A stretch of DNA of 64,000 bases, from the NCBI RefSeq assembly GCF_022846255.1, contig NZ_AP025682.1, one strand, 5' to 3'. The notes below the pieces were generated by a model. That model saw only the letters and a list, made by a program, of their open reading frames with translations, was not told the origin of the DNA and did not search any database. Origin of the DNA: Escherichia coli. Its GTDB lineage: Bacteria > Pseudomonadota > Gammaproteobacteria > Enterobacterales > Enterobacteriaceae. Shown piece by piece: positions 27,681 through 32,171 of the stretch (its first letter is position 1; each line of letters begins with the position of its first letter). A program made the position numbers and the translations under genes.

Positions 27681-30095
27681 TCATCCCGCAAACTGCCTGA
27701 ACAGCGCCTTACCCTTAACCAGTCGCGCACCCAGCCAGCCGCCGCAAAGCGACAGCAGCAGCGCACCGCTGCACGGCAGAACAATCCACAATCGCCAGTC
27801 TGGCTCCCACGGGAAATCAAACACTTTCGATTGCAGTACCGCCAGTGCCGTTTCCGCACCAATTGCGGCCACCAGGCCAGAAACAAACCCGATCATGGCG
27901 AACTCACACCACAATGTCGTGCGCAGTAGTTTTTTCCCCGCACCGAGTGTGCGCCACACCACCAGCTCCTGATGACGCTGACGCATTCCCACCTGCACCT
28001 GTGCCAGCAACAGCAACATACCGCAGGCGGTGACCAGCACCACCATCACTTCCAGCGCCCGACTTACCTGCTCCAGCACCTGACCGACCTGTTTTAAAAT
28101 CGCGCCAATGTCTAACAGGCTAATGGTAGGGAACTGGCGGTTGAGTTGCGTCAACATGCCGTTGCCATTCTCCCAGCGGAAACTGGTAAGCCAGCTCTGC
28201 GGTTGCCCGTCTAATGCCCCTTCCGGGAAAATAAAATAGAAATTAGGCCGCAGACTTTCCCAGTCCACTTTGCGCAGGCTGGTCACTTTAGCGCGGAACT
28301 CCTGGGTATCGCCCATAAAGGTGACTGTATCGCCGAGGCCAACGTTTAAGCGTTTCGCCAGCCCCTCTTCCATCGACACTTCATCGGCTTTTGGCGGCCA
28401 GTTACCGGCGACAATCGGATTATGATCGGGCCGCGTATTTTGCCAGGTAAGATTGAGTTCGCGGTTAAGCGCCTCATCTTCATTGCCTTCTGTCGGCTTG
28501 TCGTTAATCGCCGTCAGTCGCGCCCGCACCACCGGATAAAATGATTCCGGGACTATCTGATGTTCCGCGAGGAACGTTTTTAGCGGCGTAACCTGTTCTG
28601 TGGCGATGTTGATTAAAAAGTAGTTCGGGCTTTCTGGCGGTAGCTGCTGTTGCCAGCGGTCGAGCAGATCGCCACGCAATACCAGCAACAGCGCCAGCAG
28701 CATAAAGGAGAGCGAAAATGCCGAAAGCTGGCTTAACGTTGACCACGGCTGACGTAACAGGCGGCTAACCGCCAGGCGCAGAGGTAGCGATTTCAGCGTC
28801 ATGCGGCGAAGTACATTCAGCAGCATCCAGCCCAGCACACCGCACAGCAAAGCCAGTACTACCGCGCCCGCCAGCACCGCCCAGAGCAGCATACTGCCGC
28901 CCATTAATCCGGCGAGCAGCAGCACAACCACCACACTGACAATCGGCAGATAAAACTTCAGCGGCCAGACGTTCGCGACCACATCATTACGCAATACGCG
29001 TAAAGGCTGCGTTGCCAGCAACAAGCGGTACGGTCGTAGCCCCACCAGCAGCGAGATGACCGTCATGGTGCCCAGCGCCCACAGCCACGGCCAGAGGCTG
29101 GCTGGCGGTAGTGCAGCAGGCAGAACGGGCTTGAGCAGCACCATCAACACGTTTTCGAACAACAGGCCTATCGCCCCACCGGTAACGGCTGAAAGCGTCA
29201 GCACCATCAACCACTGACCGACGATTAGCTTACGCAGTTGCGCTCGCCCTGCCCCCAGCGTTTTGAGGATCGCCACCAGATCGTAGCGACTGCGACAGTA
29301 ATGATTCATCGCTACCGCCACCGCTGCCACTGCCAGCAGCAAGGTCAGAAGCGCCGAAAGTAGCAGGAACTGTTGCGAACGTTCCATCGAGCGCCCCAGC
29401 GCGCCTTCGTCCTGTTCCAGACCGTACCAGCGTTGTTCGGGTTTAAGCTGGGGTAACAACCATTTCTCATAGCCGTCGAGCTGGTTCTCGTTGCCGCCGA
29501 ATTTATAGCGCCAGGTGACCCGACTTCCCGGCTGCACGGCTCCGGTTTTATCAACATCCGCCAGATTCATCATCAGGCGTGGGGCTATCTGGAAAGGATT
29601 AAAACCGGAATCCGGTTCCTGAATCACTTCTCCGGCAATCCGCAAGGTGGCATCGCCCACGTCAATGGTGTCGCCCGTTTTCAGGTTAAGCAGTGCCATC
29701 AGGCGTGGGGCCAGCAATACGCTGCCCGCCTGTGGTTTCAGGCCAGGGGGATTGGTTTGCAGATCGCCATACATCGGGTAGATATCATCCACCGCTTTGA
29801 CGTTCGCCAGTTGCGGCGTATCGCCCGCAAAAGTCATCGTGGCGAAAGTCAGCTGCTTGCCGACTTTCAGGCCGCGCTTTTGCGCTTCCTCCAGCCATGC
29901 TTGCGGCACTTCGCGCGAACTGCGCAACGCCCGATCGCCCGCCATAAACTCCCGGCTTTGCTGGCTTAAGCCCTTCTCCATGCGATCGCTGATGTTGCCC
30001 AGCGCCAGCACGCAGGCCACCGCCAGGCTTAGCGCCAGCCAGACAATTAACAGCGACGGCGAGCGCCATTCGCGCCAGAACCAACGTGCAATCAT
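27681..30095 (-). CDS. ybbP: ABC transporter permease (FtsX-like, two permease domains)
   Basis: 804 aa polytopic protein; start overlaps the ybbA stop (ATGA). Confidence 0.9.
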   Translation of the reverse strand: MIARWFWREWRSPSLLIVWLALSLAVACVLALGNISDRMEKGLSQQSREFMAGDRALRSSREVPQAWLEEAQKRGLKVGKQLTFATMTFAGDTPQLANVKAVDDIYPMYGDLQTNPPGLKPQAGSVLLAPRLMALLNLKTGDTIDVGDATLRIAGEVIQEPDSGFNPFQIAPRLMMNLADVDKTGAVQPGSRVTWRYKFGGNENQLDGYEKWLLPQLKPEQRWYGLEQDEGALGRSMERSQQFLLLSALLTLLLAVAAVAVAMNHYCRSRYDLVAILKTLGAGRAQLRKLIVGQWLMVLTLSAVTGGAIGLLFENVLMVLLKPVLPAALPPASLWPWLWALGTMTVISLLVGLRPYRLLLATQPLRVLRNDVVANVWPLKFYLPIVSVVVVLLLAGLMGGSMLLWAVLAGAVVLALLCGVLGWMLLNVLRRMTLKSLPLRLAVSRLLRQPWSTLSQLSAFSLSFMLLALLLVLRGDLLDRWQQQLPPESPNYFLINIATEQVTPLKTFLAEHQIVPESFYPVVRARLTAINDKPTEGNEDEALNRELNLTWQNTRPDHNPIVAGNWPPKADEVSMEEGLAKRLNVGLGDTVTFMGDTQEFRAKVTSLRKVDWESLRPNFYFIFPEGALDGQPQSWLTSFRWENGNGMLTQLNRQFPTISLLDIGAILKQVGQVLEQVSRALEVMVVLVTACGMLLLLAQVQVGMRQRHQELVVWRTLGAGKKLLRTTLWCEFAMIGFVSGLVAAIGAETALAVLQSKVFDFPWEPDWRLWIVLPCSGALLLSLCGGWLGARLVKGKALFRQFAG

Positions 30096-30778
30096 GCTTC
30101 CTCCTGCAACTGCCCGTTCACCAGCCGTAAGCAGCGGTCACAGCGTGCCGCCAGTTGCAGGTCGTGGGTCACCATAATCAACGTGGTGCCATGTTCACGG
30201 TTGAGGGAAAACAGCAGGTCGGCAATTTTATCGCCCGTCTGGCGGTCAAGGTTGCCGGTGGGTTCGTCGGCAAACAGCACATCAGGCCGACCGTTAAAGG
30301 CACGCGCCAGCGCCACTCGTTGCTGTTCGCCGCCGGAAAGCTGTGCCGGAAGATGATCAAGACGTTTACCCAGCCCTAACTGTTCGAGCAACGCTTTCGC
30401 CCCGTTACGACTTTCTGCGCTACTCTCACCACGCAGCAGCGCCGGAAGCTCGACGTTTTCCAGCGCGTTAAGGGTAGGAATTAACATAAATGACTGAAAA
30501 ACAAAGCCTACGTGCTTCGCGCGCAACTTTGCCCGCGCTTCTTCGTCCATATTATGTAGCGGTTGTCCCACCAGATTTACTTCGCCACTGCTGCCGTCAT
30601 CCAGTCCGGCGAGGATCGCCAGCAACGTTGACTTACCCGATCCCGACTCGCCCACCAGCGCGATGGTCTCGCCACGTTTGACAACCAGCTCAACTCCGGT
30701 GAGGATGGAGAGTTCATGCTCCCCCTGACCGACGGACTTCTTAAGATGATGAACTTCAACAATGTTTTCCGCTGGCAT
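30092..30778 (-). CDS. ybbA: ABC transporter ATP-binding protein
   Basis: 228 aa with Walker A GESGSGKST, signature LSGGEQQR and Walker B. Confidence 0.92.
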   Translation of the reverse strand: MPAENIVEVHHLKKSVGQGEHELSILTGVELVVKRGETIALVGESGSGKSTLLAILAGLDDGSSGEVNLVGQPLHNMDEEARAKLRAKHVGFVFQSFMLIPTLNALENVELPALLRGESSAESRNGAKALLEQLGLGKRLDHLPAQLSGGEQQRVALARAFNGRPDVLFADEPTGNLDRQTGDKIADLLFSLNREHGTTLIMVTHDLQLAARCDRCLRLVNGQLQEEA

Positions 30779-31372
30779 TTGCCCTTCCTGTTCCTGGTCC
30801 TGTTAACCTTCCGTGCCGCCGCAGCGGACACGTTATTGATTCTGGGTGATAGCCTGAGCGCCGGGTATCGAATGTCTGCTAGCGCGGCCTGGCCTGCCTT
30901 GTTGAATGATAAGTGGCAGAGTAAAACGTCGGTAGTCAATGCCAGCATCAGCGGCGACACCTCGCAACAAGGGCTGGCGCGCCTTCCGGCTCTGCTGAAA
31001 CAGCATCAGCCGCGCTGGGTGCTGGTAGAACTGGGCGGCAATGACGGTTTGCGTGGTTTTCAGCCACAACAAACCGAGCAAACGCTGCGCCAGATATTGC
31101 AGGATGTCAAAGCCGCCAACGCTGAACCATTGTTAATGCAAATACGTCTGCCTGCAAACTATGGTCGCCGTTATAATGAAGCCTTTAGCGCCATTTACCC
31201 CAAACTCGCCAAAGAGTTTGATGTTCCGCTGCTGCCCTTTTTTATGGAAGAGGTCTACCTCAAACCACAATGGATGCAGGATGACGGTATTCATCCCAAC
31301 CGCGACGCCCAGCCGTTTATTGCCGACTGGATGGCGAAGCAGTTGCAGCCTTTAGTAAATCATGACTCATAA
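30746..31372 (+). CDS. tesA: Periplasmic thioesterase I / lysophospholipase L1 (SGNH hydrolase)
   Basis: MMNFNNVFRWHLPFLFLVLL signal peptide followed by the GDSLS motif; ATG at 30746. Confidence 0.93.
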   Translation: MMNFNNVFRWHLPFLFLVLLTFRAAAADTLLILGDSLSAGYRMSASAAWPALLNDKWQSKTSVVNASISGDTSQQGLARLPALLKQHQPRWVLVELGGNDGLRGFQPQQTEQTLRQILQDVKAANAEPLLMQIRLPANYGRRYNEAFSAIYPKLAKEFDVPLLPFFMEEVYLKPQWMQDDGIHPNRDAQPFIADWMAKQLQPLVNHDS

Positions 31373-32171
31373 AGCAACGGAGATCCTGACAGGTAAAGTT
31401 ATGCAAAAATCGGTCTTAATTACCGGATGTTCCAGTGGAATTGGCCTGGAAAGCGCGCTCGAATTAAAACGCCAGGGTTTTCATGTGCTGGCAGGTTGCC
31501 GGAAACCGGATGATGTTGAGCGCATGAACAGCATGGGATTTACCGGCGTGTTGATCGATCTGGATTCACCAGAAAGTGTTGATCGCGCAGCCGACGAAGT
31601 GATCGCCCTGACCGATAATTGTCTGTATGGGATCTTTAACAATGCCGGATTCGGCATGTATGGCCCCCTTTCCACCATCAGCCGTGCGCAGATGGAACAG
31701 CAGTTTTCCGCCAACTTTTTCGGCGCACACCAGCTCACCATGCGCCTGTTACCCGCGATGTTGCCGCACGGTGAAGGGCGTATTGTGATGACCTCATCGG
31801 TGATGGGATTAATCTCCACACCGGGTCGTGGCGCTTACGCGGCCAGTAAATATGCGCTGGAGGCGTGGTCAGACGCACTGCGCATGGAGCTGCGCCACAG
31901 CGGAATTAAAGTCAGCCTGATCGAACCTGGTCCCATTCGTACTCGCTTCACCGACAACGTCAACCAGACGCAAAGTGATAAACCAGTCGAAAATCCCGGC
32001 ATCGCTGCCCGCTTTACGTTGGGACCGGAAGCGGTGGTCGACAAAGTGCGCCATGCTTTTATTAGCGAGAAGCCGAAGATGCGCTATCCGGTAACGCTGG
32101 TGACCTGGGCAGTAATGGTGCTTAAGCGCCTGCTGCCGGGGCGCGTGATGGACAAAATATTGCAGGGGTGA
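31362..32171 (+). CDS. ybbO: Short-chain dehydrogenase/reductase YbbO
   Basis: 269 aa with TGCSSGIG cofactor-binding motif and YAASK active site. Confidence 0.9.
   Translation: MTHKATEILTGKVMQKSVLITGCSSGIGLESALELKRQGFHVLAGCRKPDDVERMNSMGFTGVLIDLDSPESVDRAADEVIALTDNCLYGIFNNAGFGMYGPLSTISRAQMEQQFSANFFGAHQLTMRLLPAMLPHGEGRIVMTSSVMGLISTPGRGAYAASKYALEAWSDALRMELRHSGIKVSLIEPGPIRTRFTDNVNQTQSDKPVENPGIAARFTLGPEAVVDKVRHAFISEKPKMRYPVTLVTWAVMVLKRLLPGRVMDKILQG

Follow-up and report, generated by a model that had tools for sequence, protein, structure and literature searches.

The coding sequences of tesA and ybbA run head to head into each other and share 30-33 nt. In all likelihood, this overlap is genuine and evolutionarily fixed, and it is the best overall explanation of the evidence assembled here. 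The window, a 64,000-nucleotide stretch of Escherichia coli DNA, shows two adjacent plus-strand ATGs for tesA (30746-30748 and 30749-30751, read directly from the sequence), and the CAT at 30776-30778 is the minus-strand ATG of ybbA. At the junction, the plus strand reads ...CTTAAG ATG ATG AAC TTC AAC AAT GTT TTC CGC TGG CAT TTG.... Counted from ATG 30746, the shared coding stretch is 33 nt; counted from ATG 30749, it is 30 nt. The codons of the two genes are in register: position 1 of either gene faces position 3 of the other. The translation of the plus frame (MMNFNNVFRWHLPFLFLVLLTFRAAAADTLLILGDS...) is that of TesA, a reading frame of 208 aa, and the minus frame from 30778 (MPAENIVEVHHLKKSVGQGEH...GESGSGKS...) is that of YbbA, 228 aa. 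With 33 nt shared by 5' coding ends on opposite strands, tesA and ybbA form a divergent overlapping gene pair. The coordinates of all features are collected in Table 1.

The same arrangement is found in E. coli K-12 MG1655, with nothing different: the segment 30670-30800 is identical in the two sequences, and the K-12 annotation, with tesA (b0494) at 519139..519765 on the minus strand and ybbA (b0495) at 519733..520419 on the plus strand, already contains the 33-nt overlap. The window as a whole is 95-99% identical to E. coli chromosomes in 5,418 of 5,426 complete genomes. In a PGAP-annotated genome, tesA starts at the second ATG, leaving an overlap of 30 nt. An earlier note, made from the letters of the window, had placed the first 11 codons of both genes on opposite strands of the same 33 bp, and the open reading frames and the K-12 annotation agree with it. 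The overlap itself is, hence, already annotated and published, and the current understanding of the locus is unchanged. The additions made here are its conservation among 80 species, the constraint imposed by dual coding, a predicted tesA promoter inside ybbA and a near-zero spacer that characterizes the whole family.

Table 1. Features of the tesA-ybbA junction and its surroundings (positions in the window).
Feature	Position	Strand	Details
Head-to-head coding overlap	30746..30778	both	tesA codons 1-11 (MMNFNNVFRWH) against ybbA codons 1-11 (MPAENIVEVHH)
Universally conserved core of the overlap	30749-30778	both	30 nt; ATGs invariant among Enterobacteriaceae
tesA CDS	30746..31372	+	208-aa pre-protein (207 aa from ATG 30749); open reading frame, K-12 and PGAP annotation
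ybbA CDS	30092..30778	-	228 aa; ATPase subunit of the YbbAP type VII ABC transporter
ybbP	27681..30095	-	permease partner of ybbA; 4-nt overlap with the ybbA stop; ybbA-ybbP operon
ybbO	31362..32171	+	11-nt overlap with the tesA stop; putative tesA-ybbO operon
Conserved region upstream of the tesA start, CTGACCGACGGACTTCTTAAG	30725..30745	+	21 nt, inside ybbA codons 12-18
Predicted sigma-70 promoter of tesA	30678..30706	+	-35 TTGACA 30678-30683, 17-nt spacer, -10 GAGGAT 30701-30706; ybbA codons 25-34
ybbA Shine-Dalgarno (SD), AGGAAGGG	30782-30789	-	inside tesA codons 13-15; 3 nt from the ATG
In-frame TTG, tesA codon 12	30779..30781	+	used by some gene callers as a non-overlapping start; judged not to be a start
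Alternative upstream in-frame tesA ATG	30716..30718	+	strong SD-like GGAGAG at 30707-30712 (Escherichia-specific, without conservation beyond that group); pre-TesA would have 218 aa and the overlap 63 nt; considered unlikely

With the two same-strand overlaps (30092-30095 and 31362-31372), the four genes that make up both divergent operons are linked in one chain of coding overlaps. The locus has the composition of a YbbAP-TesA system, with a MacB/LolD-like ATPase and an FtsX-type permease beside a periplasmic SGNH (GDSL) hydrolase. YbbA matches the 9ge6, 9ge7 and 9ge8 chains across residues 1-228, and TesA matches 9ge8_T and 1ivn. All TesA chains in the PDB begin at residue 26-28, in line with a signal peptide of residues 1-26 and A27 as the first mature residue. 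On the tesA side, the overlap thus specifies nothing but the n-region of this signal peptide, which is cleaved off before residue A27 of the mature protein.

Conservation was followed at the same locus in 80 Enterobacteriaceae species from ~18 genera, which provide 78 distinct sequences for the start columns. The ybbA ATG (30776-30778) and the second tesA ATG (30749) are unchanged in 78 of 78, and the first tesA ATG (30746) is replaced by ACG in 16 of 78, so the universally conserved overlap is the one of 30 nt. Of the 33 columns of the overlap, 27 are conserved at 97% or more in the Enterobacteriaceae alignment. The conservation in other enterics, proposed earlier as a check, is thereby confirmed. 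Two members of the set deserve a remark on their own. The locus titled 'Chryseobacterium sp. 18061' (L058, CACSKA010000001.1, 2501-3124) carries an Enterobacteriaceae-type tesA/ybbA pair with 88% TesA identity, and its start-codon pattern is that of 'Citrobacter sp. 18056' (L063) from the same project; this assembly is probably mislabelled or contaminated. In Citrobacter amalonaticus AUH_CA_2023_1 (L042), a 1-base insertion in a C-run (CTCCCCCC) at the homologue of ~30719-30724 frameshifts ybbA in this assembly only, most likely through a homopolymer sequencing error rather than in a pseudogene.

The imprint of two superimposed reading frames is visible at the synonymous sites. Within the overlap, their conservation reaches 0.963 for ybbA (codons 2-11) and 0.959 for tesA (codons 2-11), against a background of 0.664 and 0.693, respectively. 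None of 100,000 random draws attained either value, and every contiguous background window falls below both. To the left of the overlap, species vary almost only at ybbA wobble positions and, to the right, only at tesA wobble positions. General codon effects at 5' ends were considered as an explanation for this lack of synonymous change and rejected: in the non-overlapping neighbour cnoX, taken as a control, codons 2-11 reach just 0.815, compared with ~0.96 here (codons 12-18 of cnoX are at 0.645 and its background is at 0.709). Since the synonymous sites are frozen in each frame, above the level of this control, the alignment indicates that both frames are translated and that both are under purifying selection through the overlap.

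The exact start of tesA differs between databases, where TesA is found with 194, 197, 204, 207, 208 and 218 aa. The 204- and 207-aa versions correspond to a start at the second ATG, the 208-aa version to the first ATG and the 218-aa version to ATG 30716; those of 194 and 197 aa begin with MPFLF at the in-frame TTG 30779, flush against the ybbA ATG. Conflicting starts are even carried by the same genomes (P0070 vs. P0011, P0089 vs. P0019; 197/194 aa vs. 208/204 aa). The overlap could, therefore, be regarded as an annotation artefact, in which the true start of one gene lies further downstream (TTG 30779 for tesA, an internal codon for ybbA) and the proteins are made without any overlap. This reading draws on the MPFLF entries of some pipelines and the exact abutment of the TTG on the ybbA ATG, on the weak SD of the annotated tesA ATGs and on the cleavage of the signal peptide, by which mature TesA offers no direct evidence on its start. 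However, the codon at 30779 encodes L in 68, W (TGG) in 6 and V (GTG) in 4 of the 78 sequences, so that it is not a start in at least six species; it also lacks an SD (-1.5 kcal/mol), and a protein begun there would have a signal peptide without an n-region. ATG 30749, on the contrary, is invariant in all 78, and the wobble positions of both frames are frozen throughout the overlap. As for ybbA, no canonical start codon follows 30778 until a GTG at V42, just before the Walker A motif. Homology of YbbA with the solved NBDs of LolD and MacB sets in at residues 4-9 (aligned with their residues 3-8), and a downstream start would thus truncate the fold. A downstream start of either gene had been named in advance as the result that would remove the overlap; the comparative evidence and the constraints of fold and signal peptide speak against it, and the artefact is extremely improbable.

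The opposite deviation, a longer overlap confined to Escherichia, in which tesA initiates at least partly at ATG 30716, is very unlikely as well, although it has a better ribosome-binding signal on its side. A strong SD-like sequence, GAGGATGGAGAG, lies 3 nt upstream of this ATG; its energy of -7.9 kcal/mol ranks at about the 1st percentile among random positions. The frame between 30716 and 30746 is open in 80 of 81 sequences, and several database entries use the 218-aa start. Against it, the codon itself varies (ATG 42, GTG 28, CTG 9, TTG 2) in the manner of a free ybbA wobble position, and it indeed stands opposite a His/Gln wobble site of ybbA; it was rejected as a conserved tesA start on this ground. 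GGAG and a start codon occur together in only 10 of 81 sequences, the tesA-frame residues at 30716-30724 vary freely (P/T/S, L/F/I), and the n-regions of distant homologues are short (2-8 residues). If the predicted promoter described below is right, the transcription start site (TSS) at ~30713 would, moreover, be downstream of that SD. Judged on sequence comparison, both annotated starts, with their overlap of 30-33 nt, qualify as real translation starts and not as over-extended reading frames. In the full-text literature searched, and in the supplements of three genome-wide TSS or N-terminomics studies, no experimentally mapped transcription or translation start was found for tesA or ybbA.

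Because the starts overlap, the ribosome-binding site (RBS) and the promoter of each gene come to lie inside the other gene. On the tesA side, the conserved region directly upstream of the start probably represents the translation-initiation region: ybbA wobble sites over 30725-30745 are conserved at 0.933, a value reached by none of 100,000 random draws. The SD of tesA is nevertheless weak (duplex of -3.2 kcal/mol). Conservation is high again over ybbA codons 24-34 (0.895 at wobble sites, again 0 of 100,000 random draws), and codons 19-23, between these two blocks, are at background (0.62). The predicted sigma-70 promoter of tesA, within the second block, is the top plus-strand site of this kind in a weighted scan of a 1.3-kb region and is found at the same position in 81 of 81 sequences, 55 of which have AAGGAT as the -10 element. 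Two invariant, 4-fold-degenerate valine wobble sites fall within TTGACA; the predicted -10 element matches the consensus at 3 of 6 positions. Transcription would start at ~30713 and leave a leader of ~33 nt. A scan for strict consensus promoters in 30400-31100 returned no sites and did not report the predicted tesA promoter. No inverted repeats or operator-like palindromes were seen in 30640-30900, and no Rfam family was matched in 30400-31100 at E <= 1.

On the ybbA side, the SD is clearer: the anti-SD duplex has an energy of -7.0 kcal/mol, beyond the 5th percentile of random positions. The tesA wobble sites of codons 12-19 are moderately conserved (0.835, p ~0.012), and the background level is regained from codon 20. 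The search for a ybbA promoter covered 500 nt upstream in the 81 sequences and gave no sigma-70-like site at a conserved position; the best candidate, ~300 nt upstream, is present in 41 of 81. The expectation of the earlier note that promoters and RBSs of both genes are embedded in the partner's coding sequence follows from the overlapping starts and holds: the ybbA SD lies in tesA and the predicted tesA promoter lies in ybbA. Of a face-to-face promoter pair, one half, the tesA promoter conserved in 81 of 81, is predicted, and no convincing conserved sigma-70 site for ybbA was found within tesA.

The layout extends beyond the enterics. A distant set of 13 TesA representatives (41-70% identity) was compiled, with the starts inspected by hand where the DNA could be examined. 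In 12 of the 13, a divergent ABC ATPase and an FtsX-type permease are kept next door; one distant locus (L093) is too short to judge, and its upstream gene is on the same strand. The genes at the related loci carry the Pfam domains ABC_tran, FtsX and Lipase_GDSL. Among 11 distinct distant arrangements, the start-to-start distances are -33, -8, -2, -2, 0, +13, +17, +25, +52, +64 and +70 nt. The coding overlap of the enterics is, thus, the extreme end of a family-wide divergent tesA/ybbAP layout with almost no spacer. As such spacers leave no room for two separate promoters with leaders, the overlap of the 5' transcripts would be a property of the whole family. In many distant TesA homologues (P0134-P0270, lengths of 230-315 aa), the predicted protein has 30-100 additional N-terminal residues; here, the start may have been set too far upstream, in the antisense of the divergent ABC gene, which would be the opposite annotation error.

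As to its origin, the overlap most likely arose by loss of the spacer and migration of the start codons into N-terminal regions that tolerate sequence change, and would later have been frozen by dual coding. The tolerant regions would be the n-region of the TesA signal peptide and the short tail of YbbA that precedes its first strand. The DNA of the overlap specifies the TesA n-region on one strand and, on the other, the YbbA N-terminal tail with the start of the first beta-strand.

The overlap has consequences for the transcripts, since the overlapping CDS starts require the 5' ends of the tesA and ybbA transcripts to be antisense to each other. If tesA is transcribed from ~30713 and ybbA from beyond 30790, at least ~78 nt of the two RNAs, with both RBSs, would be complementary. 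The transcripts would start face to face, and each polymerase would have to cross the other promoter. Interference by polymerase collision or promoter occlusion, and the formation of an RNA duplex, are, from this geometry, physically possible at tesA-ybbA, in keeping with the interference or antisense coupling that the earlier note predicted; any regulatory effect is probably modest. An RNA-seq survey of 2025 (ExcludonFinder, PMC12288877) counts tesA-ybbA among only 16 divergent excludons of E. coli MG1655, each present in 50% or more of the 58 RNA-seq samples. Because the CDSs themselves overlap, such a coverage-based call is nearly automatic and is silent on regulation. The tesA and ybbA operons have also been described to 'partially overlap', with products that form one complex (PMC12646458); in that work, the co-location of the genes was taken as evidence for a physical YbbAP-TesA complex, which was then solved. 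In the literature searched, no report was found of reciprocal expression of tesA and ybbA or of either gene affecting the other.

It could, nevertheless, be argued that selection actively maintains the overlap as a regulatory module, a true excludon by which tesA-ybbO and ybbAP are expressed in a mutually exclusive manner or in a tightly controlled ratio. The RNA-seq listing as a divergent excludon, the near-zero spacer kept in 11 distant lineages beyond the enterics, the conserved blocks outside of the coding overlap (ybbA codons 12-18 and 24-34), which show embedded signals, and the presence of both RBSs in the complementary RNA segment are all compatible with such a role. The products, however, cooperate in one complex, which argues for co-expression, and mutually exclusive expression fits poorly with this. 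The predicted tesA signals are weak (3 of 6 positions in the -10 element, an SD of -3.2 kcal/mol), so that transcription is probably modest, and interference requires a strong promoter according to established models. The spacer, ranging from -33 to +70 nt, also shows that no particular overlap is required. A regulatory module of this kind is, on balance, unlikely. The broader proposal, that the near-zero or negative tesA-ybbAP spacer (seen down to homologues of ~40% identity) is a selected module for bidirectional control, is quite improbable; if it were true, face-to-face promoters located in each other's first ~35 codons, together with mutually antisense 5' ends over both RBSs, would set the ratio or the timing at which hydrolase and transporter are made for the YbbAP-TesA complex. 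A genuine coding overlap fixed by dual coding remains the preferred explanation.

Comparison with known systems helps to place this locus. Face-to-face promoter pairs, such as pR/pL of coliphage 186, are known to cause transcriptional interference. The likeness lies in promoters that fire toward each other over a short interval, each polymerase crossing the other promoter. In coliphage 186, both TSSs are mapped and one of the promoters is strong; at tesA-ybbA, on the contrary, the tesA promoter is predicted only, no ybbA promoter was found, and expression of both genes is probably weak. Same-strand overlaps of 4 nt (ATGA), like that of ybbA/ybbP, are co-directional, are carried by one mRNA and allow coupling by termination-reinitiation. 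The head-to-head overlap of tesA/ybbA, unlike these, involves two mRNAs, and translational coupling is impossible. With the divergent excludons (PMC12288877), the pair shares the divergent orientation of neighbours and the overlap of 5' transcripts. Most excludons, however, overlap through long UTRs and often join neighbours with opposing functions, whereas tesA and ybbA share coding sequence itself and encode partners of the same complex.

No class of gene overlap is rarer in bacteria than the head-to-head coding overlap, and such cases are frequently written off as errors in the choice of start codon. Of 663 adjacent gene pairs with an overlap in E. coli, 2 were divergent vs. 586 co-oriented (Huvet & Stumpf, PMC4161906). 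Gene callers that do not allow 5'-5' overlaps will place the tesA start wrongly, which probably accounts for the 197- and 194-aa database entries. The rules of Prodigal disallow 5'-5' overlaps on opposite strands, which is consistent with these TesA versions.

The shared 5' ends also matter in practice: deleting or editing the start region of one gene damages the first codons, the RBS or the promoter of the other, and the engineering of TesA at its native locus, as well as the interpretation of tesA and ybbA knockouts, are affected. The tesA-ybbA overlap is real and ancient, and it joins genes whose products have recently been shown to form one envelope machine. The locus is, therefore, a clean natural case in which to ask whether the divergent excludon layout regulates functional partners.
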